Virus record (IMG/VR): IMGVR_UViG_2537561575_000012 | Reading direction: 5' to 3' (one strand) | Length of the DNA: 23,622 nucleotides | DNA from: a virus | Taxonomy: Duplodnaviria; Heunggongvirae; Uroviricota; Caudoviricetes | In this document: positions 2 to 23,361 of the stretch, in pieces | Numbering within the stretch: position 1 is the first letter of the stretch | Layout: each line of letters begins with the position of its first letter | The notes under the pieces: model-generated | Seen by the model: the letters and a program-made list of their open reading frames with translations, nothing else | Told to the model about the DNA's origin: nothing | Database searches by the model: none | Program-made: the position numbers and the translations under genes

Positions 2-568
2 TTAGCCTCTTATCTTGAATTCTGCTATAACTTTGCCGATGAATACAAGGTCATTAATGTTCATATCAACAATGATATTCCCATAGTTAATCTTAACTTT
101 ATTATCAGGAATTCTAATAACTTGTTTTATAGAATGCTTTCCATCAATGGAGATTAACCAATCACCATCAACTACATCTGTGAAATCCCTCTCAATAAAA
201 TAAGAGTTATTCCCGTTTGATATCACAGATGGTGATGATAAACCATCAGGAATGAACACCTTGTCAAACATTAGTGTTCCTGCATCCAATAGCACTCCAT
301 CAATCAATTTTATTTTTTGAATATTGATGATGTCAGAAGTTAAATATTCATGTTTAGGAGGTAAGCCTGTTACCAGCCACTTTATGTTTACTCCTGTTTC
401 GAGCGCGCACTGAATAACCCAATCAGAAGGGAATGAATCTCTCATGTAGCGTGTAGCAAGACTGCTTTTTGATATGCCTAGTTGTTCACATAACGCCTGT
501 CTTGTAGTGAACCCATAGGCTTCAACCATCCTTTCGATAGCTTTCTTTCCACCTTGACTAAAATCCAT
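2..568 (-). CDS. cI: CI-type prophage repressor (186 CI-like)
   Basis: ORF 2..673 minus; start placed at internal ATG 568-566 (MDFSQGG...), stop TAA at 4-2, about 188 aa. N-terminal region EAYGF...QL...SSL..RY.R...DW...CALETG.N..WL.TG matches my memory of the P2/186 CI repressor N-terminal domain. Faces the early operon across a 126-bp control region. Confidence 0.75.
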   Translation of the reverse strand: MDFSQGGKKAIERMVEAYGFTTRQALCEQLGISKSSLATRYMRDSFPSDWVIQCALETGVNIKWLVTGLPPKHEYLTSDIINIQKIKLIDGVLLDAGTLMFDKVFIPDGLSSPSVISNGNNSYFIERDFTDVVDGDWLISIDGKHSIKQVIRIPDNKVKINYGNIIVDMNINDLVFIGKVIAEFKIRG

Positions 569-570
569 CG

Positions 571-644
571 ATTTCACCTTGTGAACTTTATGGTTGACGA
601 TTTCAATTTGTGATCTTATAGTCGCATTGATTTCAAAATGTGAC
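571..644. repeat. Three direct repeats ATTTCA-N4-TGTGA in the cI/apl switch region (candidate operator sites)
   Basis: Seen directly: atttcaccttgtgaa (571-585), atttcaatttgtgat (600-614), atttcaaaatgtgac (630-644), spaced about 29-30 bp. They flank and interleave the -35/-10 of the rightward promoter. Confidence 0.45.
594..622 (+). promoter_or_regulatory. Candidate sigma70 early lytic promoter (pR-like)
   Basis: -35 TTGACG at 594-599, 17-bp spacer, -10 TATAGT at 617-622, reading toward the apl-like gene at 695. A mirror TTGACG on the minus strand (656-661) may be the -35 of a face-to-face lysogenic promoter, but its -10 is weak. Confidence 0.5.
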
Positions 645-694
645 TTACAACTACTCGTCAATGTTAAACACACTTAAACAGGAGATGTTGCCTT

Positions 695-948: not shown

Positions 949-1458
949 ATGTTTGATTATCAAGTTTCCAAACATCCACATTTTGACGAAGCCTGTCGTG
1001 CATTCGCACTGCGCCACAACCTGGTGCGACTGGCAGAACGTGCAGGCATGAATGTACAGATTCTGCGGAACAAGCTGAACCCAGCTCAACCTCATTTATT
1101 AACCGCACCAGAAATCTGGTTGCTTACCGATCTGACTGAAGATTCAACGCTGGTAGATGGCTTTCTGGCACAGATTCACTGCCTGCCATGTGTACCGATT
1201 AATGAGGTGGCAAAAGAGAAACTGCCGCATTATGTCATGAGTGCAACCGCAGAGATCGGGCGTGTTGCTGCAGGTGCGGTATCTGGCGATGTAAAAACCA
1301 GTGCAGGTCGTCGTGATGCTATCAGCAGCATTAACTCTGTAACACGACTGATGGCGCTGGCCGCTGTTTCATTGCAGGCCCGTTTACAGGCTAATCCTGC
1401 GATGGCGAGTGCAGTTGATACCGTGACTGGCCTCGGTGCTTCATTCGGTTTGCTGTGA
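949..1458 (+). CDS. cII: CII-like lysogeny establishment regulator (186 CII-like)
   Basis: 169-aa ORF, the same length I recall for 186 CII; N-terminus [20 protein letters not shown]... and C-terminus ...GASFGL resemble my memory of 186 CII; second gene of the early operon. Confidence 0.7.
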
Positions 1459-1465
1459 GGTGCTT

Positions 1466-1666
1466 ATGCTGACGAAAGAACCATCATTTGCATCGCTGCT
1501 GGTAAAACAAAGTCCGGCAATGCACTACGGTCACGGCTGGATCATGGGTGAGGATGGTAAACGCTGGCATCCGTGCCGTTCACAAGATGAATTGCTGGCA
1601 GAACTATCTACGAAAAAACGGGGGAACAAATGGCTATTGAAGGCGCTGCGGCGACTGTTCCATTAA
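1466..1666 (+). CDS. Hypothetical small early protein (position of 186 fil)
   Basis: ORF 1436..1666 trimmed to ATG 1466, which is preceded by GAGGTG. No recognisable motif. Confidence 0.4.
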   Translation: MLTKEPSFASLLVKQSPAMHYGHGWIMGEDGKRWHPCRSQDELLAELSTKKRGNKWLLKALRRLFH

Positions 1667-1971
1667 GACCCGGTGAACGCCTGAATGGACTTAATCATAT
1701 TGCGGAGTTAAGGGCGAAATTTTTTGGTTTGAATATTGAGTCAGAGCTTGAGCGGTTTATTAAAGATATGCGTGATCCTCGGGATATCAATAATGAACAA
1801 AATAAACGGGCACTGGCTGCCATATTCTTTATGGCAAAAATTCCAGCTGAACGTCATAGCATCAGCATTAATGAGCTGACCACTGACGAAAAGCGGGAGT
1901 TGATTAAAGCAATGAATCATTTTCGTGCAGTGGTGAGCTTATTTCCCAGACGGCTAACCATGCCGAATTAA
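1630..1971 (+). CDS. Hypothetical early protein
   Basis: 113-aa ORF in the early operon; overlaps the previous ORF by 37 nt in another frame. No recognisable domain. Confidence 0.5.
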   Translation: MAIEGAAATVPLRPGERLNGLNHIAELRAKFFGLNIESELERFIKDMRDPRDINNEQNKRALAAIFFMAKIPAERHSISINELTTDEKRELIKAMNHFRAVVSLFPRRLTMPN

Positions 1972-2038
1972 CCAACTAATGAAATTAATGGCGTAAACCC
2001 GCCGGGCATCCCTTTATCTAAATTCAGGAGAATTGCTT

Positions 2039-2272
2039 ATGCGTAATATTGAAACCCTCACGACCAAAACCGGACCGGATGATGCAGGTCTTAATCTTTT
2101 ACTGACAGAGGCTCGTCTGGAAGAACGCCGGGCAAGGGCTGAAGCAATGGCTGCTCGCCTCGATAGCCTGGCGTGTCATATCACCTCCCGCCAGCTAAAC
2201 CACGTCGAAGCGGCAGAACTGCTGCGTGTGACTGCTGAAGCAATCCAGAACGAAGCGCAGGAGATCCACTGA
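2039..2272 (+). CDS. Hypothetical early protein
   Basis: ORF 2033..2272 with start at ATG 2039 preceded by AGGAGA; stop overlaps the next start (TGATG at 2270-2274). Confidence 0.5.
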   Translation: MRNIETLTTKTGPDDAGLNLLLTEARLEERRARAEAMAARLDSLACHITSRQLNHVEAAELLRVTAEAIQNEAQEIH

Positions 2273-2499
2273 TGGCTGATGCAATGGATCTCGTACAGCA
2301 GCGCGTTGAAGAAGAACGCCAACTCCATATCCGTGCTGCCCGTGCCAAAACGCCGGGCGTGTCCCGCGTGCTTTGCGTTGAGTGTGAAGCGCCAATTCCG
2401 CCAGCACGCCGCCGTGCCATTCCGGGTGTGCAGCTTTGCATTACCTGTCAGGAAATCGCAGAGCTGAAAGGCAAACATTACAACGGAGGTGCTGTATGA
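2272..2499 (+). CDS. TraR/DksA-family C4 zinc-finger protein
   Basis: 75 aa; C-terminal CVEC-x17-CITC zinc ribbon with upstream acidic helix (DLVQQRVEEERQ) fits the TraR/DksA pattern; translationally coupled to neighbours. Confidence 0.7.
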   Translation: MADAMDLVQQRVEEERQLHIRAARAKTPGVSRVLCVECEAPIPPARRRAIPGVQLCITCQEIAELKGKHYNGGAV

Positions 2500-3350
2500 G
2501 CACCATCCTGAAATGGGCAGGAAATAAAACCGCCATAATGTCCGAACTGAAAAAGCATCTTCCTGCTGGCCCGCGACTGGTTGAACCTTTCGCGGGTTCC
2601 TGTGCAGTGATGATGGAGACGGATTACCCCAGCTATCTTGTTGCGGATATTAATCCTGATTTAATCAACCTCTATAAAAAGGTTGCTGCTGATTGTGAGG
2701 CGTTTATATCTCGTGCCAGAGCTTTATTTGAGGAAGCAAACAGGGAGGTGGCTTATTACAACATAAGGCAGGAGTTTAATTACTCCACTGAAATTACTGA
2801 TTTCATGAAAGCGGTATATTTCCTGTATCTCAATCGTCACGGTTACCGTGGTTTATGTCGCTATAACAAGAGCGGGCATTTCAACATTCCCTACGGTAAT
2901 TATAAAAATCCGTATTTCCCTGAAAAAGAAATTCGCGCATTTGCAGAGAAAGCCCAGCGGGCAACGTTTATCTGCGCCAGCTTTGATGAAACGCTGGCGA
3001 TGTTGAAGGTGGGGGATGTGGTGTATTGCGATCCGCCTTATGACGGTACGTTTTCCGGCTATCACACTGATGGTTTCACTGAAGATGATCAGTATCACCT
3101 GGCATCCATTCTTGAACATCGGTCATCAGAAGGACATCCGGTCATTGTTTCTAACAGTAACACGTCTTTGACCCGGTCCCTTTATCGTAATTTCACTCAC
3201 CACTACATCAGGGCGAAACGCAGCATCGGCGTTGCAGCGGGGGAGGGAAAATTTGCAACAGAGATGATTGCCACTAAATCTGCTAATTGGTTTAGTGCCG
3301 ATTTTAGTAGGGGACGTGACTCTACTGTTATTTTCGGGGTGCAAGTGTGA
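2496..3350 (+). CDS. dam: DNA adenine methyltransferase (Dam family)
   Basis: ORF 2436..3350 with start at ATG 2496 ([18 protein letters not shown] upstream); motif I PFAGS and catalytic DPPY ([10 protein letters not shown]); ATGA overlap with the TraR-like stop. Confidence 0.85.
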
Positions 3351-4177
3351 AAGAAATGCACCACGGAATTCATCATTTCCATGGGACGCCTGTCTGGGGA
3401 AGTGCTGGCGACGTTCATCGTATTGCGGTGAGCGGAGCTGGCGCTTTCGTCTCCTATGTACGACCAGATCAGATTGCGGCGTCCATTCAGCACGCTCAGG
3501 TCGTCGGCATTGATAACGGCGCATTTTCTGCATGGGTGCGTGGGCTAAAAATTAACTGGAGTGATTTTTATAAATGGCTCCTGAACTATTACCACCATCC
3601 TAAGGTCGCTTTTTTTGTCATTCCTGATGTTGTGGACGGAGGTGAACGTGACAATGATGCCCTGATAAACGAAGTTCCGAAAATGTTCTACGGGAAGGCA
3701 ACTCCCGTCTGGCATCTGCACGAGTCAATCGATCGGCTTATCGAGCTATGTCGTGAATGGCCTCGTGTCTGCTTTGGATCGTCTGGTGAATATGCGGCTA
3801 TCAGAACTGCGCACTGGCATCGTCGTATGCAGGACGCTTTTGAAGCAATTTATTGCCGACACAATTTCAAAACAGCTGTTCATGGTTTGCGCATGCTTGA
3901 CGGTCGTGTGTTGGGAAATTACCCACTGGCGACTGCCGACAGTACAAATCTTGCCTGCAATGTCCCCAAATTTAATAGCAAATATCCTGAGCTGACGCGG
4001 GCTATTCAGGAGGCTGAGTATTCGCGCAATCTGACGGAAAAGGAGCTGAAAGCTGTCATTCTGAAAAACCGTTGCGCAATTTTAAAAGGTGCAATTGAAG
4101 CTGTTCGCCCACCTTCAGTTTCTGATTGGCTGTCGAATGGTTTGCAGCCTTCACAGCTCGAACTGGAGATTGCGTAA
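3347..4177 (+). CDS. Conserved hypothetical protein, translationally coupled between dam and the replication gene
   Basis: 276-aa ORF; GTG start at 3347 overlaps the dam stop (alternative ATG at 3356); its stop overlaps the next start (TAATG at 4175-4179). No motif I can assign with confidence. Confidence 0.6.
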
Positions 4178-6549
4178 TGAACTACAGCTATTCCTGGAAT
4201 GCTGAGAAAAAAGCAATCAATCCTTACGTAGAGACGGAAGAGCAATCTTCAGTTTCTGCGCTTTCAACCCTGATCGCTCTGTACGCTGCCGATAACGAGC
4301 AGGAACAGCTGCGCCGCGAGGCACTGAGTGATCAGGTCTGGGAGCGTTATTTCTTTAATGAATCCCGTGATCCTGTCCAGCGCGAAATGGAGCAGGATAA
4401 GCTCATTAGTCGGGCAAAGCTGGCGCATGAGCAGCAGCGTTTTAATCCAGATATGGTCATTCTGGCGGACGTTAATGCCCAGCCTTCCCATATCAGCAAG
4501 CCACTGATGCAACGTATTGAATACTTCAGCAGCCTGGGCAGGCCAAAGGCTTATTCCCGCTATTTGCGTGAGACGATTAAGCCATGTCTGGAACGGCTGG
4601 AGCATGTACGCGACTGTCAGCTATCCACTTCTTTTCGCTTTATGGCAAGCCATGAAGGGCTGGACGGCCTGCTGATCCTGCCTGAAATGAGTCAGGATCA
4701 GGTGAAACGCCTGTCCACCCTGGTAGCTGCGCATATGAGCATGTGCCTTGATGCAGCTTGTGGCGATTTGTATGTCACCGATGACGTTAAGCCAGAAGAA
4801 ATCCGCAAGACATGGGAAAAGGTGGCAGCGGAAACCCTGCGTCTGGATGTCATCCCGCCTGCGTTTGAGCAACTCCGCCGGAAAAGAAACCGCCGTAAAC
4901 CCGTGCCCTATGAACTCATTCCGGGTTCGCTGGCGCGTATGTTGTGCGCTGACTGGTGGTACCGGAAATTATGGAAGATGCGTTGCGAATGGCGGGAAGA
5001 GCAGTTGCGTGCTGTCTGCCTGGTCAGCAAAAAAGCATCTCCCTATGTCAGCTATGAAGCCGTGATGCATAAACGTGAGCAGCGCCGTAAGTCGCTGGAG
5101 TTTTTTCGTTCTCATGAACTGGTGAACGAAGACGGCGACACGCTGGACATGGAGGATGTGGTAAACGCCAGCAGCAGCAACCCTGCGCATCGCCGCAATG
5201 AGATGATGGCCTGTGTTAAAGGCCTGGAGCTTATCGCGGAAATGCGCGGTGACTGCGCCGTTTTCTACACCATCACCTGTCCGTCACGTTTCCATTCCAC
5301 GCTAAATAATGGCAGGCCCAACCCAACTTGGACAAATGCGACGGTAAGACAAAGCAGTGATTATCTGGTCGGCATGTTTGCTGCATTTCGTAAGGCGATG
5401 CACAAAGCCGGATTGCGGTGGTATGGCGTGCGGGTGGCTGAGCCGCATCATGACGGTACAGTTCACTGGCACCTGTTGTGTTTTATGCGCAAAAAAGACC
5501 GCCGCGCCATCACTGCATTACTGCGTAAGTTTGCCATCCGTGAAGACCGCGAGGAACTGGGCAATAACACTGGGCCGCGCTTTAAGTCTGAGTTGATTAA
5601 CCCGCGCAAAGGTACGCCAACAAGCTACATCGCGAAATACATCAGTAAGAACATTGACGGGCGTGGTCTGGCTGGCGAGATCAGCAAGGAAACGGGGAAA
5701 TCCCTGCGTGATAATGCTGAATACGTTAATGCCTGGGCGTCTCTGCATCGTGTTCAGCAATTCCGCTTCTTTGGCATTCCGGGGCGTCAGGCTTACCGTG
5801 AACTGCGATTGCTGGCTGGTCAGGCGGCAAGGCAACAGGGGGACAAAAAAGCAGGTGCGCCGGTACTGGATAACCCGCGCCTTGATGCCATCCTGGCTGC
5901 TGCTGATGCTGGTTGTTTTGCCACCTACATCATGAAGCAGGGCGGCGTACTGGTTCCCCGCAAATATCACCTCATCAGAACCGCTTATGAAATCAACGAA
6001 GAGCCGACCGCCTATGGCGATCACGGCATTCGTATTTATGGCATCTGGTCACCTATTGCAGAGGGCAAGATCTGCACTCATGCCGTGAAGTGGAAAATGG
6101 TTCGTAAGGCCGTTGATGTTCAGGAGGCGGCAGCCGACCAGGGCGCTTGCGCCCCTTGGACTCGTGGCAATAACTGTCCCCTTGCTGAAAATTTGAACCA
6201 ACAGGAGAAAGATAAATCAGCTGATGGGGACCCCAGAACGGACATTACCAGCATGGATGACAAGGAGTTGCACGAATACCTGCACAGTATGAGCAAAAAA
6301 GAGCGCCGGGAACTGGCAGCAAGGTTACGCCTGGTGAAACCGAAACGGCGTAAAGACTACAAACAGCGAATTACAGACCATCAGCGACTGCAGCTCGTGT
6401 ATGAGCTGAAGTCCAGAGGATTTGATGGCAGCGAGAAAGAGGTCGATTTACTCCTTCGCGGAGGCAGTATTCCGTCAGGAGCAGGCCTGCGTATCTTCTA
6501 TCGGAACCAGCGTTTGCAGGAAGATGATCAGTGGCGGAACCTGTATTAA
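4177..6549 (+). CDS. Rolling-circle replication initiation protein (P2 gpA-like, HUH endonuclease)
   Basis: ORF 4126..6549 with start at ATG 4177; motifs [14 protein letters not shown] (TVHWHLLCF) and double-tyrosine YIAKYISKN typical of phiX174/P2 gpA-type initiators. Confidence 0.8.
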
Positions 6550-7510: not shown

Positions 7511-8425
7511 ATGCCATACCAATTGGTAGAGCTTAGCCCCGTAGCTAACGATCTTGAACAGTTAGGAACCAAAGAGAAGTTTTGGTTCTATTTCTCCGAT
7601 GACACTGTAAATTTGCAGTTGTTTAAGTACTCTAGGCCAGGTACTGGCGAGCATTGGTCTGAAAAGTGTGCTGCTGAGTTATGTCATTTGCTTAACATTC
7701 CACATGCTAGCTATGATTTGGCGCGATACAATGGTCGATTCGGTGTGGTGACTCAGAATATCATTCCATCTGGTTTCCGGATGGTAATGGGAAATGAAGT
7801 GCTTCACAGTTCGACATTCGATTATCCTGGGCCTTTACAAGCCGGGGAAAAGCCGGTAAGGGTCAGAGAACACACTGTCACAAGGGTCTTGGGTTGTTTA
7901 GATAGGGAATCTATCAAGCCTCCTCCGAGTGTATATGATCTAACCGGGCTAAATGCAGCAGATGTATTTTGTGGATATTTGATGCTCGATGCACTTGTGA
8001 GTAATCAAGATCGCCACCATGAAAATTGGGCAATCATGCTTAACAATGAAACTGGTGAGCAGTTTTTGTGTCCAACATACGATCATGCCGCTAGTTTAGG
8101 AAGGGAGATGTTAGATGATGAGCGTAACGAACGGCTTAATACTAAAGATAAAAATCGACAAATCCCATGTTTTGTAAGAAAAGCTCGCTCTGAGCTATTC
8201 AAAGCAAAAACTGATAAAAAGCCCTTGCTGACTGTTGAAGCATTTCAACATGCAGTTGAAGGGAGAGTTGCCGCTCGCGACCATTGGTTAGGTAAGTTGA
8301 GCGTTTTAACAGAAGATTCCATTACAGATGTGTTTAACCAAGTGCCTTCATCGTGTATATCCGACAGTGCACGTAGATTTGCAACGTTAATGGTAATGGA
8401 AAATCGCAGAAGGTTACTAGAATGA
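7511..8425 (+). CDS. HipA-like Ser/Thr kinase, C-terminal catalytic domain only (HipT-like)
   Basis: 304 aa; G-x-x-E-K loop LGTKEKF (aa 18-24), catalytic-loop-like SNQDRHHENWA (aa 164-174) and YDHAAS (aa 190-195) parallel HipA motifs; no HipA N-terminal domain; AGGGA before the ATG; stop overlaps the next start (ATGA at 8422-8425). Confidence 0.7.
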   Translation: MPYQLVELSPVANDLEQLGTKEKFWFYFSDDTVNLQLFKYSRPGTGEHWSEKCAAELCHLLNIPHASYDLARYNGRFGVVTQNIIPSGFRMVMGNEVLHSSTFDYPGPLQAGEKPVRVREHTVTRVLGCLDRESIKPPPSVYDLTGLNAADVFCGYLMLDALVSNQDRHHENWAIMLNNETGEQFLCPTYDHAASLGREMLDDERNERLNTKDKNRQIPCFVRKARSELFKAKTDKKPLLTVEAFQHAVEGRVAARDHWLGKLSVLTEDSITDVFNQVPSSCISDSARRFATLMVMENRRRLLE

Positions 8426-9162
8426 CTAATACAAACTCCGTTTACGTCGCATGGCAGGCACCAGATACCAGAGACTGGCATGTTGTTGGTAACTTGCAAG
8501 AGCGCAAATCGGGGTATGTTTTCAGGTATACCAAAGGTGCTCTTAAATCTTCTAAATTTACAAAGTTTAGCGGCATGAGTGATGTTCGTGAAACTTATGT
8601 ATCGGAAGAATTGTTTCCTCTTTTTAAAAATCGCCTTTTATCACCGAGACGTCCAGAGTATCCGAGTTTCATTAAATGGCTTGGATTTGAAGAAGATAAG
8701 GTAAATCCTATCGATATTCTTGCTCGCTCGGGAGGCTTACGAAGCACTGATCAGCTGCAGATTTTCAAAAAAATTGATTTTGATTCTGATGGTAACTTTG
8801 AGCATTTTTTCTTCTTACATGGACTTGGTTACTTGAATAGCTTAGCTAATGCTCGTGTATCTGAATTGAAACCGGGGCAAATTTTGCGTCTTTGCTTGGA
8901 TCTTCAAAATGAATACGATGGGGATGCTGTTGTCGTTCGTGCAGATAAACCAGCTGAAATCGTTGGTTACTGCCCTAGGTATTTAAGTAATGACATCAAG
9001 AAGATGTTATTGGATGATCCAAAATCAATCACTTTAACGGTCGAAAAGATTAGCGATGATGCTCCTCATAACTATCGGTTATTATGTAAATTATCAGGGG
9101 TACTAAGCCAAGCCTGTCAATCGACGCTGATTCCTCAAGATGAGTTTGAACCTATTGAGTAA
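8422..9162 (+). CDS. HipS/HipA-N-like domain fused to a C-terminal HIRAN domain
   Basis: 246 aa. N-terminal ~120 aa (VVGNL...YVFRY...LFPLFKNRLLSP...NPIDILARSGGL) resemble the HipA N-subdomain and HipS (LFPFFDGLIPEG...). C-terminal aa ~125-215 (ILRLCLDLQNEYDGDAVVVRADKPAEIVGYCPRYLSNDIKKMLLD) fit the HIRAN pattern. Confidence 0.6.
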   Translation: MTNTNSVYVAWQAPDTRDWHVVGNLQERKSGYVFRYTKGALKSSKFTKFSGMSDVRETYVSEELFPLFKNRLLSPRRPEYPSFIKWLGFEEDKVNPIDILARSGGLRSTDQLQIFKKIDFDSDGNFEHFFFLHGLGYLNSLANARVSELKPGQILRLCLDLQNEYDGDAVVVRADKPAEIVGYCPRYLSNDIKKMLLDDPKSITLTVEKISDDAPHNYRLLCKLSGVLSQACQSTLIPQDEFEPIE

Positions 9163-19847: not shown

Positions 19848-20445
19848 TCTGCTGCCACCGGGTTCAACACCACTGGAGCGCCGACTGGCGCAAACCTGCA
19901 GCGGGATTTCTGATCTGCAGGTGCCGCTTCGTGACTTGTGGAATCCGGCAACCTGTCCGGTCAGTTTCCTGCCTTATCTCGCCTGGGCGTTCTCTGTGGA
20001 TCGCTGGGACGAGGGCTGGACAGAAAGCGTCAAGCGCCAGGTGGTGAAGGATGCTTTTTATATTCATCAGCATAAAGGGACCACCAGTGCCGTGCGGCGG
20101 GTGGTGGAGCCGTTCGGATTCCTGATCCGCATTATTGAGTGGTGGCAGACCGGAGAAACACCGGGCACGTTTCGCCTGGATATCGGCGTGCAGGACCAGG
20201 GCATCACTGAAGATACCTATCTGGAACTTGAGCGACTGATAAGCGATGCCAAACCATGTAGCCGCCACATGATCGGCATGTCCATCAATCTGCAGACCAG
20301 CGGCCCGCATTGGGTGGGAGCCGCCAGCTATCTTGGCGAAGAAATCACGATCTATCCGTATATCAACGAAACGATTATTTCCGGTGGCACCGCGCATGAA
20401 GGCGGGGCGGTCCATGTTATTGATACAATGAGAGTGAATCCATGA
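19840..20445 (+). CDS. Baseplate/tail protein I (P2 gpI-like)
   Basis: 201 aa; overlaps the J stop and the H start (ATGA at 20442-20445). Confidence 0.7.
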   Translation: MNSLLPPGSTPLERRLAQTCSGISDLQVPLRDLWNPATCPVSFLPYLAWAFSVDRWDEGWTESVKRQVVKDAFYIHQHKGTTSAVRRVVEPFGFLIRIIEWWQTGETPGTFRLDIGVQDQGITEDTYLELERLISDAKPCSRHMIGMSINLQTSGPHWVGAASYLGEEITIYPYINETIISGGTAHEGGAVHVIDTMRVNP

Positions 20446-21677
20446 GCACAAAATTTTATACCCTGCTGACGGATATTGGCGCGGCGAAACTTGCCAGCGC
20501 CGCCGCGCTCGGTGTGCCGCTAAAAATTACCCATATGGCGGTGGGCGATGGCGGTGGAGTATTGCCAACGCCGGACGCAAAGCAGACGGCACTGGTAAAT
20601 GAGAAACGCCGGGCTGCGCTGAATATGCTTTATATCGACCCGCAGAACAGCAGCCAGATTATTGCCGAACAGGTGATCCCTGAAAACGAGGGCGGTTGGT
20701 GGATACGTGAAGTGGGCTTGTTTGATGAGTCCGGGGCATTGATTGCCGTGGGCAACTGCCCGGAAAGCTATAAGCCGCAACTGGCTGAAGGTAGCGGGCG
20801 CACTCAGACCGTGCGCATGGTGCTGATTACCAGCAGCACGGACAATATCACCCTGAAAATCGACCCTGCTGTAGTGCTGGCAACCCGCAAGTATGTGGAT
20901 GACAAGGCACTGGAGCTGAAGGTGTACGCGGATGATCAGATGGCAAAACATCTTGCCGCACCGGACCCGCATTCACAGTACGCGCCAAAAGCCAGCCCGA
21001 CATTTACCGGAACCCCCAAAGCGCCAACGCCAGCGGCGGGGAATAATACCACGCAGGTTGCGACCACTGCGTTTGTACAGGCGGCACTGACGGCCCTTAT
21101 TAATGGTGCGCCAGCCACGCTGGACACGCTGAAAGAAATAGCCGCAGCCATTAACAATGATCCGAATTTCAGTACCACCATTAACAATGCGCTGGCACTA
21201 AAAGCACCGTTGTCGAGTCCGGCACTCACCGGAACGCCAACAGCCCCCACGGCGGCGCAGTCGGTCAACAATACACAGATTGCCACTACGGCTTTTGTGA
21301 AATCGGCGATTGCAGGAATGGTGGGTTCTGCACCTGCTGCACTGGATACACTGAACGAACTGGCGGCGGCACTGGGGAATGATCCGAACTTTGCCACGAC
21401 AATGCTTAATGCGCTGGCAGGTAAACAACCGCTGGACAATACGCTTACCAATTTGAGTGGAAAGGATGTAGCTGGTCTTCTCACATACCTTGGTTTGGGA
21501 GAAGGCTCTGCATTACCTGTTGGTGTCCCTGTTCCGTGGCCTTCAGCCACTCCGCCGACAGGCTGGCTGAAATGCAACGGTGCGGCTTTTTCTGCCGAAG
21601 AATACCCGGAACTGGCAAAGGCTTACCCGACAAATAAATTACCTGATTTACGCGGTGAGTTTATTCGTCACCTGTAA
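20442..21677 (+). CDS. Tail fibre protein H, constant region plus shared segment, in its current orientation
   Basis: 411 aa; conserved N-terminus MSTKFYTLLTDIGAAKLA; two internal fibre repeats; the last 57 aa before ...GEFIR are encoded by the left inverted repeat; the ORF stops 2 codons after the repeat (HL-stop). Confidence 0.75.
   Translation: MSTKFYTLLTDIGAAKLASAAALGVPLKITHMAVGDGGGVLPTPDAKQTALVNEKRRAALNMLYIDPQNSSQIIAEQVIPENEGGWWIREVGLFDESGALIAVGNCPESYKPQLAEGSGRTQTVRMVLITSSTDNITLKIDPAVVLATRKYVDDKALELKVYADDQMAKHLAAPDPHSQYAPKASPTFTGTPKAPTPAAGNNTTQVATTAFVQAALTALINGAPATLDTLKEIAAAINNDPNFSTTINNALALKAPLSSPALTGTPTAPTAAQSVNNTQIATTAFVKSAIAGMVGSAPAALDTLNELAAALGNDPNFATTMLNALAGKQPLDNTLTNLSGKDVAGLLTYLGLGEGSALPVGVPVPWPSATPPTGWLKCNGAAFSAEEYPELAKAYPTNKLPDLRGEFIRHL
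20991..21434 (+). repeat. Two tandem ~74-aa tail-fibre repeat units within H
   Basis: aa 184-257 and 258-331 share P.FTGTP.APT.....N.TQ.ATTAFV..A......AP..LDTL.E.AAA..NDPNF.TT..NALA.K.PL, a phage tail-fibre repeat pattern. Confidence 0.5.
21478..21503. other. Candidate recombinase crossover site (hix/gix/pix-like), left
   Basis: TTCTCACATACC-TT-GGTTTGGGAGAA: two 12-bp half-sites in imperfect dyad (10/12) around a 2-bp core, similar to hixL as I recall it (TTCTTGAAAACC AA GGTTTTTGATAA); at the outer end of the left inverted repeat. Confidence 0.45.
21490..21668. repeat. Left arm of a ~179-bp inverted repeat
   Basis: Reverse complement of 23183-23361; I saw three synonymous mismatches in spot checks; both arms encode the same 57 aa (GEGSALPVGVPVPWPSATPPTGWLKCNGAAFSAEEYPELAKAYPTNKLPDLRGEFIR). 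Confidence 0.75.
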
Positions 21678-21871
21678 ATATCCCCCTGCCGATATCTTTC
21701 AGCAATACCAATTATTGTGTTGTTGCATCGTACGATAATGCACGGTCAGGTGTGTCAACAATGGTTAGTTTTGCAGCATTGCCTGTTTCACCATCGCAAT
21801 TTTCCCTGATGTCATCTGTGACTGAGCAAGGAATAAATCCTTTTGCTTACTGGATTGCTTTTGGAGATTGA
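21659..21871 (+). pseudogene. Possible frameshifted remnant of the plus-orientation fibre variable segment
   Basis: A 70-codon open frame (no stops from 21659 to TGA 21869-21871) shifted by one nucleotide from the H frame; it ends 3 nt before the Tfa start (TGA TAA ATG). Only internal ATG (21761) or GTG (21752) starts, so it is absent from the ORF track. Confidence 0.3.
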
Positions 21872-21874
21872 TAA

Positions 21875-22294
21875 ATGGACAGATACTTCTATTCACAAAA
21901 AGAAAATGGTTTTTTTACCGATTTAAATAAAGCACCTTCAGATGCTGTTGAGATAAACACGGATGAATGGCTGTTACTACTGGATGGTCAGGATAATGGC
22001 ATGAAAATAGTCAGCAATCAGGAGGGATATCCGGTTTTGACAGAGCAACCACCTTTATCAAAAGAAAACCTTATTGCATTGGTGGAGTTGAAAAAAAGAA
22101 AACTTATTAATGAAGCCAACGAGCACATGAACAGCAGACAATGGCCAGGTAAAGCGGCTATTGGTCGTCTGAAAGGTGAGGAACTGGCGCAATATAATTT
22201 ATGGCTGGATTATCTGGACGCACTGGAACTGGTTGATCCCTCCAGTGCTCCAGATATTGAATGGCCTACGCCTCCGGCAGTTCAGGCCAGATGA
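21875..22294 (+). CDS. Tail fibre assembly protein (Tfa/U-like), plus orientation
   Basis: 139 aa; C-terminus ...DYLDALELVDPSSAPDIEWPTPP parallels the C-terminus of the convergent minus-strand paralogue; 3' ends overlap by 29 nt. Confidence 0.65.
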   Translation: MDRYFYSQKENGFFTDLNKAPSDAVEINTDEWLLLLDGQDNGMKIVSNQEGYPVLTEQPPLSKENLIALVELKKRKLINEANEHMNSRQWPGKAAIGRLKGEELAQYNLWLDYLDALELVDPSSAPDIEWPTPPAVQAR

Positions 22295-22868
22295 CATCCG
22301 GTGCGGTGCTGGTATCTGTTGCCGTCACCGCGTCAATGTAATCCAGCGCAGCGTTAAGTCGGGCGGTTTCTGCCTGCGTCAGATTCCGTCCGGCCTGTAA
22401 TTTCAGTTGAATCAGACTGATAGAAGCCATTGCTGTATCAATCAGCGACTGGCGCTGTGCTTCTGCTGCATCTACTACGGCGCTATGCTGTGCCTCGGTA
22501 TCCGTCACCCATTTCTCACCATCCCATTTATCGTATGGCGTTAACGGGGCGATAGTGGTTGTATTATCAGGGTAATCACCCGGTGCTGTGATTTCTTTTG
22601 ATTCTCCTGTTTCGGTGCTAAAGACAATTTCACCGCGATGGTCTGGTACATATTCCCATGAGTTAAAATCTGCAGAGCGGCAGATTGCATAACCAGCTTT
22701 GTAGGTGCCTGGAGCATCTAAACAGGAATATGCCGGAATGCCGACACCAACAGCAAGATATTCAGTTGAAGCTGAAATATACTCCCGACTCATGACGTCA
22801 AAGTTATAAACAGTAATTTCTCCTGCCATAGTGGCAATTAATTCACTGTTTAATTCTGCGTTATTCAT
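22266..22868 (-). CDS. Tail fibre assembly protein (Tfa'/U'-like), minus orientation
   Basis: 200 aa; C-terminus ...DYIDAVTATDTSTAPDVIWPELP; its start overlaps the stop of the alternative fibre segment (TAATG). Confidence 0.7.
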   Translation of the reverse strand: MNNAELNSELIATMAGEITVYNFDVMSREYISASTEYLAVGVGIPAYSCLDAPGTYKAGYAICRSADFNSWEYVPDHRGEIVFSTETGESKEITAPGDYPDNTTTIAPLTPYDKWDGEKWVTDTEAQHSAVVDAAEAQRQSLIDTAMASISLIQLKLQAGRNLTQAETARLNAALDYIDAVTATDTSTAPDVIWPELPEA

Positions 22869-23361
22869 TATGCAGCCCTCACAATATAGTTAAAAGCGAC
22901 ATTTCGTGGGCGTGTTTCATTCGCACCTGCATGTTTAGTCGTTGCCGCAACAACACCACCCTCTGTAATAGCCGGGTTGGGAATTGGGTAATTATCGAAG
23001 TCAATGGCCGGAGACAGGGGCGTGATTTGTTTTAAAATCGTGGTGCCTGTAAAACTTTCCAGAGTCTGGTCGTTAGTTCGTGAAGTCCAGATTCCCCAAT
23101 AGTGGTTATGACTGACAATCGCACCGTCCTGAAGCGTTAATAATCCCCTTCCGTTATCCCCTCCACGTCCGTCATCCCAGCCACGAATAAACTCACCGCG
23201 TAAATCAGGCAATTTATTTGTCGGGTAAGCCTTTGCCAGTTCCGGGTATTCTTCAGCAGAAAAAGCCGCACCGTTGCATTTCAGCCAGCCTGTCGGCGGG
23301 GTGGCTGAAGGCCACGGAACAGGGACACCAACAGGTAATGCAGAGCCTTCTCCCAAACCAA
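22868..23361 (-). CDS. Alternative tail-fibre C-terminal segment (Hv'), fused to H only after inversion
   Basis: Minus-strand ORF 22868..23356; begins inside the right inverted repeat with the same 57 aa as the end of H, continues ~104 aa further (GWDDGRGG...NVAFNYIVRAA), then stop; no credible independent start. Confidence 0.65.
23183..23361. repeat. Right arm of the ~179-bp inverted repeat
   Basis: Reverse complement of 21490-21668 with a few synonymous differences. Confidence 0.75.

Follow-up and report, generated by a model that had tools for sequence, protein, structure and literature searches.

A 276-amino-acid protein encoded upstream of the replication gene in a P2/186-like Escherichia coli prophage belongs to the singleton phage DpdA family of predicted 7-deazaguanine DNA transglycosylases

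What is encoded between the DNA methyltransferase gene and the replication gene of the viral record IMGVR_UViG_2537561575_000012? The 23,622-nucleotide stretch of DNA analysed here, referred to as the window, is part of an E. coli P2/186-like (Peduoviridae) prophage, and the place in question is filled by an open reading frame of 276 amino acids on the + strand, read from a GTG start (3347..4177; an alternative ATG at 3356 gives 273 amino acids). RefSeq, UniRef and Pfam give its product no name, and in its 274-member cluster at 90% identity all 40 of the 40 named members that were read were hypothetical or uncharacterised. A first-pass annotation of the same DNA had offered a DpdA-type TIM-barrel transglycosylase, or another DNA-modifying enzyme, as a pure guess. 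Our results showed that the guess was sound. The protein is a member of the singleton phage DpdA family in the tRNA-guanine transglycosylase (TGT) superfamily, by its sequence relationships, and its predicted activity is that of a 7-deazaguanine DNA transglycosylase. To the whole explanation, in which a TGT-superfamily (β/α)8-barrel singleton DpdA marks the phage DNA with a host-supplied base alongside the Dam methyltransferase, we assign a probability of about 0.72.

The assignment was based on homology to named and experimentally studied DpdA proteins. PHROG 887, annotated as 'queuine tRNA-ribosyltransferase', matched the protein with an E value of 2.4e-96. In tblastn searches against phage genomes, the identity was 75% to the Salmonella P2-like phages SEN1 (gp38), SW9 (gp39) and SI22, 61% to a bat-gut siphovirus, 55% to the DpdA of Pantoea phage MED16, 38% to the lambdoid phage HK106, and 34-36% to Salmonella phage 7-11 and its relatives (34% to the 7-11 DpdA itself). 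SEN1 gp38 and SW9 gp39 were named as the closest viral DpdA homologues in the study of MED16 (PMC8306585). A family alignment of 71 sequences (A3), which spans the family down to about 28% identity, was matched by hhalign to the DpdA of phage CAjan with a probability of 98.8% (E 4.7e-17, 172 columns), and deletion of CAjan dpdA abolishes dPreQ0 in the phage DNA (PMC6884629). MED16 and 7-11 are the two gamma-proteobacterial "DpdA-only" phages that were examined experimentally; they encode dpdA only, and dADG is present in their DNA at 354 and 50 per 10^6 nucleotides, respectively (PMC8306585, PMC6884629). It is this dADG, in the DNA of MED16 and 7-11 only, that gives indirect support for a modified nucleoside. 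PHROG 887, the MED16 and SEN1 homologies, the CAjan profile match and the structural model described below all agreed with the guessed transglycosylase, and the search assigned the protein to the DpdA family, not to a replication-accessory or unrelated family.

Several other searches returned nothing of use. Scans of the protein against Pfam and NCBIfam gave no meaningful match, with none to PF01702 at E<=1, while phmmer and two hidden Markov model profiles (built from 41 and 71 sequences) found only spurious coiled-coil matches among the PDB sequences. The family profile did not match the single E. coli Tgt sequence in hhalign (probability 1.2%), and PADLOC had no match for the protein. Homologues in the database formed 4313 clusters at 90% identity and 906 at 50%. 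The ratio of nonsynonymous to synonymous substitution (dN/dS) of the gene against its relatives was below 0.07, with dS saturated, and purifying selection on dpdA is strong. A chance open reading frame was ruled out by the thousands of homologues, and a degenerate gene or pseudogene by this ratio (with its saturated dS) together with the invariant catalytic residues.

Structural analysis placed the protein in the same superfamily. The AlphaFold2 model, calculated from the 41-sequence alignment, was confident (pLDDT 89.5, pTM 0.85) and showed strands alternating with helices and, after them, a helical extension at the C-terminus, the core being a TGT-superfamily (β/α)8 barrel; the clade-specific C-terminal helices span residues of about 205-265. 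The only invariant columns of the 71-sequence alignment were D56, D94, H123, H179, D198 and S199. The predicted active-site residues among them are encoded on the + strand at 3512-3514 (D56), 3626-3628 (D94), 3713-3715 (H123), 3881-3883 (H179) and 3938-3940 (D198). With the residue roles proposed for CAjan DpdA (PMC7544227), hhalign paired D56 with the general base Asp63 and D198 with the nucleophile Asp206, and it also paired N57 with Ser64, F60 with Phe67, H123 with His132, G144 with Gly153 and H179 with His187. CAjan Asp105 was aligned to D97, whereas D94 is the invariant residue of the family. The invariant residues also matched the signature of the Salmonella Montevideo (S. Montevideo) DpdA, which comprises three invariant aspartates and a histidine (PMC10164549).

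Comparison with known systems showed that the nearest ones were the phages with a singleton DpdA. MED16 gp38, SEN1 gp38, SW9 gp39 and the 7-11 protein fell in the same clade as the window protein, and in all of these phages dpdA stands without preQ0 or G+ synthesis genes. SEN1 and SW9 are P2/186-like as well and carry dpdA directly upstream of the replication gene A, as the window does; between TraR and DpdA, SEN1 has DUF5405 where the lineage of the window has Dam. Among these phages, DNA modification has been measured in MED16 and 7-11. DpdA1 of the Queuovirinae (Escherichia phages CAjan, 9g and Bas24) acts without DpdB and inserts preQ0 into DNA after replication (PMC6884629). Its catalytic core is homologous to the window protein, with the general-base Asp, the nucleophile Asp and the pocket His, Phe and Gly kept, although the identity is only about 19-25%. 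In CAjan and 9g, which have folE-queD-queE-queC together with a YhhQ-like gene, 25-32% of G is modified, whereas the window prophage has no such genes and the phages related to it that carry a singleton DpdA modify at most 0.13% of G, as dADG.

The remaining enzymes of the superfamily were more different. The bacterial DpdA of S. Montevideo (PDB 7UI4) has 413 amino acids and depends on the DpdB ATPase, with DpdC turning preQ0-DNA into ADG-DNA (PMC10164549). The bacterial Dpd system is a host defence restriction-modification island (dpdA-K), whereas the window DpdA is a phage gene among TraR, Dam and gpA; no homologue of DpdB or DpdC was found among the annotated genes of the window, and there was no ParB-like ATPase in the window. 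Cap10 of type IV CBASS (PDB 9NTN), which acts with the QueC-like Cap9 on the deazaguanylated N-terminus of the CD-NTase (bioRxiv 10.1101/2025.04.06.647259), is 10% identical to the window protein, and its partners CD-NTase and Cap9 were not found in the window. The tRNA-guanine transglycosylases (TGT, arcTGT) have PF01702, a CxCxxC...H zinc motif and C-terminal tRNA-binding domains, and the window protein is without all three. By these comparisons it is neither a canonical TGT nor a Cap10 nor the DpdA of a bacterial Dpd system.

The supply of the modified base was then considered from gene content. Homologues of FolE, QueC, QueD and QueE were absent from the window and from about 100 related loci, and no homologue of YhhQ was present in the window or in the P2-like relatives. 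The window has no genomic linkage to 7-deazaguanine supply (preQ0 genes or YhhQ), which places it in the published 'DpdA-only' group, and since neither the window nor the related loci carry preQ0 synthesis genes, the base would have to come from the queuosine pathway of the host. E. coli makes preQ0 and preQ1. In three lineages, a Vut_1/YhhQ-like gene encoding 155-158 amino acids lies directly upstream of the DpdA gene and overlaps it (loci L015/L016 5564-6031, L017 275-748 and L098 2525-3001, the bat siphovirus being among the three). YhhQ/Vut_1 is the family of the preQ0/preQ1 (queuosine-precursor) transporter.

Fusions of DpdA to adenine methyltransferases were also observed. In one 577-residue open reading frame of Rosenbergiella (L011 5977-7710), seen in a single genome, an N-terminal DpdA is followed by a D12 Dam domain at the C-terminus. 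Another DpdA-Dam fusion (P0123, 575 amino acids; L015/L016 6001-7728) is 42% identical to the L011 fusion and was present in NCBI, ENA and Logan assemblies, and a third protein (P0125, 483 amino acids; L017 721-2172), full-length in five contigs, joins DpdA to an MT-A70 adenine methylase; the last two each came from several independent assemblies. Two further candidates were rejected as fusions, each being present in one assembly: P0011 (421 amino acids, with a Dam N-terminus and a DpdA C-terminus) was due to an internal deletion, and P0124 (568 amino acids, DpdA reading through into gpA) was due to a frameshift. The methyltransferase fusions and the transporter neighbours point to DNA as the substrate of DpdA and scavenged 7-deazaguanine as its co-substrate.

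From these results we infer which base is inserted and where, when the enzyme is expressed, and what the phage would gain against restriction, as follows. Upon induction or infection, the early promoter (candidate at 594-622) would drive the whole CI-repressed operon. DpdA, being translationally coupled to gpA, would be produced at the onset of replication, and the progeny DNA would receive its mark from the enzyme once replicated. A guanine in double-stranded DNA would be flipped out by DpdA and replaced by a 7-deazaguanine in a TGT-type double displacement, in which D198, the predicted nucleophile, displaces the guanine to give a covalent enzyme-DNA intermediate and D56, the predicted general acid/base, activates the incoming 7-deazaguanine. 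This incoming base would be preQ0 or a close derivative ending as dADG, and the host would supply it through its queuosine pathway. At the same time, adenines would be methylated at N6 by Dam, so that the progeny DNA would be doubly marked, and Dam and DpdA may be regarded as a mosaic 'DNA self-modification' cassette. The benefit would most likely be escape from restriction-type defences in the next host.

An anti-restriction role is plausible in the singleton DpdA clade to which the window protein belongs. Two published observations bear on it: the modification of MED16 is sparse, and in vitro it protected little against the restriction enzymes that were tried (PMC8306585), and 7-deazaguanine marks can be targeted, for example by GrwAB (PMC12137116). 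Because both genes lie in the CI-repressed early lytic operon, a comparison of lysogenic with cured strains would probably be blind to the modification; virion DNA, not lysogen DNA, is the right material to show the mark.

The relationship of DpdA to its two neighbours was analysed at the level of the gene junctions. The layout proposed in the first-pass annotation was right in its coordinates for Dam, the 276-residue open reading frame and gpA, as shown by the open reading frame listing and the sequence, and the gene order is recurrent in E. coli genomes. The call of a Dam-family enzyme with a DPPY motif also held. The gene at 2496..3350 (+ strand) encodes a Dam-family (D12 class) N6-adenine DNA methyltransferase of 284 amino acids (PF02086 E 2e-76; TIGR00571 318 bits against a cut-off of 115; PADLOC 'orphan methyltransferase' E 6e-110), and its DPPY is encoded at 3030-3041. 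Since its score of 288 was below the E. coli Dam equivalog cut-off of 441, the window enzyme is classed from its sequence as Dam-family and not as the host orthologue. Upstream, the dam ATG overlaps the TGA of a gene for a TraR/DksA-family C4 zinc-finger protein as ATGA (2272..2499, + strand; PF01258 E 2.4e-11; TIGR02419 66.8 bits against a cut-off of 59.7; PHROG 54). Downstream of dpdA, the gene at 4177..6549 (+ strand) encodes gpA, the rolling-circle replication initiator/endonuclease (PF05840 E 4.9e-128; PHROG 91 E 1e-287).

The stop/start overlaps on the two sides of dpdA, both claimed before, were not equally firm. The overlap of the Dam TGA with the GTG start at 3347 (GTGA) holds only with that start, and it is lost with the ATG at 3356 used in the database entries (273 amino acids, P0001), which leaves a 5-nucleotide gap. 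The DpdA genes of relatives start with TTG or GTG 10-30 nucleotides past the Dam stop; the Dam/DpdA spacing is always tight, yet the overlap itself is not conserved. By contrast with this junction, the one between DpdA and gpA stood as described. The TAA of dpdA (4175-4177) shares one base with the gpA ATG at 4177 (TAATG), and the overlap of the DpdA stop with the gpA start is kept in nearly all P2-like relatives, as GC-ATGA or TAATG.

The same distinction was found in the genomic context, which was surveyed for relatives of at least 58% identity and a few hand-picked loci. In 80 IMG/VR contigs encoding the closest relatives (DpdA 71-100% identical), DpdA was directly upstream of gpA in 78, and the slot just upstream of DpdA contained Dam in 50, DUF5405 in 21 and nothing in 8. 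DpdA was at least 80% identical to the window protein in 48 contigs, all with Dam (among the 50). Nine genome loci and SEN1, which is without Dam, showed a like pattern. DpdA was immediately upstream of gpA in 7 of 10 genome or phage loci. Klebsiella P2-like phages carry TraR-Dam-A without dpdA. The Dam-less relatives and the Klebsiella Dam without DpdA show the TraR-to-A slot to be a mosaic accessory position and Dam not to be an obligate partner; the conserved neighbour of DpdA is gpA, not Dam.

Two smaller observations concern this slot. The DUF5405 protein found in the place of Dam upstream of DpdA has 92 amino acids (L001 3692-3970 and the 21 IMG/VR loci), and it might be a candidate partner of DpdA. 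In a Lelliottia prophage (L004 5946-6005), a 19-residue open reading frame ending in STIFEIRA resembles the C-terminus of the window Dam (STVIFGVQV) and, judged from this resemblance, looks like the remnant of a dam deleted upstream of dpdA.

In complete E. coli genomes, the segment from dam through dpdA to A was present at 99% identity or more in about 102-105 of 5426 (megablast), and about 1100 further genomes carried the flanks without it. Strains RM10466, ACN001 and UMNK88 are examples of E. coli with this prophage. The G+C contents of dam (0.46) and dpdA (0.49) were somewhat lower than those of their neighbours (0.53-0.57). In E. coli H32 (NZ_CP184262.1 3196223-3199664; H66/H67), an IS3-family transposase splits the traR-dam-dpdA-A segment, which was matched in two pieces, and dam is absent from the features listed under the dpdA match.

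These data bear on the suggestion, also made in the first pass, that tight coupling implies action with Dam or on DNA. Relatives with DUF5405 or nothing in the slot contradict an obligate partnership with Dam, but a looser functional link between DpdA and DNA methyltransferases is real, since the DpdA-Dam and DpdA-MT-A70 fusions exist. We consider it unlikely that Dam and DpdA form an obligate two-enzyme system in which both work at shared or overlapping sites, such as GATC-containing motifs where one would modify the G and the other the A, to produce a composite double mark. Such a system would explain why the two genes are adjacent and tightly spaced in the window, in L009 and in the 50 relatives, why DpdA is fused to a D12 Dam or MT-A70 domain in three lineages, and why a Dam-like gene is present in the dpdA operon of MED16; moreover, the target of CAjan DpdA is the G in GA (PMC7544227), a dinucleotide contained in GATC. 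However, 29 of the 80 close relatives have DpdA without Dam, as does SEN1, and the Klebsiella phages have Dam without DpdA. The neighbouring methylases are diverse (D12, MT-A70, C5, ParB-N6_N4), which is a better fit to a generic 'modification island', and GATC is not unusually distributed in the window, its observed/expected ratio being 0.75 and its frequency among the 4-mer palindromes of the window unremarkable.

A bolder proposal, which we hold to be a long shot, is that the gamma-proteobacterial singleton DpdAs, instead of being weak forms of the enzymes that modify genomes in bulk, are sequence-specific 'epigenetic' writers that would place few dADG marks per genome, by direct ADG insertion or otherwise free of DpdC, possibly at composite sites with an adenine methyltransferase. 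The fusions would then be natural bifunctional double modifiers, and in P2-like phages the conserved coupling to gpA would link marking to the start of replication.

The nature of the substrate was weighed separately. A TGT-like enzyme could act on something other than DNA, by deazaguanylating a protein as Cap10 of type IV CBASS does or by exchanging a base in tRNA, and Cap10 was indeed the best structural match of the 276-residue protein. We regard this as quite improbable, since a Cap9/QueC-like gene was absent from the window and from about 100 related loci, no CD-NTase was detected in Pfam and PHROG scans of the window open reading frames, and the sequence profile matched the DNA-acting CAjan DpdA. 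The protein also has no C-terminal tRNA-binding domains of the TGT/arcTGT type and no visible CxCxxC zinc motif, its fusion partners and neighbours are DNA methyltransferases, and in MED16, which has a DpdA 55% identical to this protein, the DNA was found by measurement to contain dADG.

Outside the P2-like phages, homologues at 61-67% identity occupy other positions. In two lambdoid E. coli prophages (L100 4001-4804 and L101 4001-4810), a DpdA homologue 63-67% identical to the window protein is part of the late lysis cassette, where it is flanked by holin and endolysin, and L101 has a ParB_N-N6_N4 methyltransferase 0.8 kb downstream of it. A nin-region homologue stands in the order DnaB-NinB-DpdA-RusA, the HK106 homologue is in the pL operon, and another follows RdgC and overlaps an 808-residue Dcm+Dam methylase. 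The adjacent Dcm/Dam or ParB-methyltransferase genes again point to DNA as the substrate. That DpdA is mainly a replication accessory of gpA, acting for example at or near the origin or nick site with a fold used for DNA binding or base flipping, is very improbable: its place next to gpA in the viral contigs and genome or phage loci counted above, the stop/start overlap kept even where gpA is only 30-35% identical, and the sparse modification of related phages, amounting to a handful of sites per genome, would suit it, but the 61-67% homologues lie elsewhere in non-P2 phages (holin-endolysin, beside RdgC or Dmt, in the pL operon or the lambdoid nin region), dpdA is absent from many P2/186-like phages, which replicate all the same (1241 E. 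coli genomes match the flanks and only about 105 carry dpdA), and the slot upstream of A also houses other accessory genes.

The DpdA family has been described before, both in publications and in PHROGs, and this holds for its P2-like members SEN1 and SW9 too. In the literature searched, we found no paper describing the pairing of DpdA with P2-like phages, no description of the conserved position upstream of gpA with its translational coupling or of the mosaic Dam/DUF5405 slot, and none of the DpdA-methyltransferase fusions or the YhhQ-like neighbours, which are useful context clues. With this assignment, a protein annotated just as "hypothetical" receives a name and a mechanism that can be tested, and the annotation gap in question spans about 2% of the complete E. 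coli genomes as well as many prophages of Enterobacteriaceae. It also means that a predicted enzyme of 7-deazaguanine DNA modification is encoded by temperate P2/186-like phages, whose easy genetics may make them a tractable model. With such a model, the questions left by MED16 and 7-11 could be addressed, namely which base is inserted by DpdA-only phages, at which sites, and how dADG arises without DpdC, as well as whether sparse marks protect the phage against defence or expose it to systems such as GrwAB.

The rest of the window is that of a P2-type prophage. The early lytic operon on the + strand comprises, in order, an open reading frame at the Apl position, CII (PF06892), Fil (PF10893), DUF5347 and DUF2732 proteins, the TraR/DksA zinc finger, Dam, the 276-residue open reading frame, gpA and a DinI-like gene. 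The gene for a 186-type CI repressor (2..673, - strand; PF07022 E 1.3e-28, PF16452 E 2.4e-26) is divergent from it. A sigma-70-like promoter match upstream of apl/cII (594..622, + strand; TTGACG-17-TATAGT, 10/12 matches) is the candidate early lytic promoter, being a consensus match only and weak evidence as such. The consensus scan, equally weak as evidence, gave no further strong promoter or terminator match on the + strand at 953-6549, and none separating dam or dpdA from the operon. Downstream, the late genes for portal, terminase, capsid, lysis and tail fibre are of the ordinary P2 type.

Two other parts of the window attracted attention. At 20442-23356, a tail-fibre gene and a tail-fibre assembly gene on the + strand are accompanied on the - strand by a second assembly gene (22266-22868) and a C-terminal fibre fragment (22868-23356), a layout which resembles an invertible host-range segment, with no invertase inside the window. 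Between gpA/DinI and the portal gene, two overlapping genes of low G+C content (0.43 and 0.39) at 7511-9162 (+ strand) encode a 304-residue HipA_C-like kinase and a 246-residue HIRAN-domain protein, which match the PADLOC candidate defence pair PDC-M03A/B with E values of 2e-122 and 7e-93.

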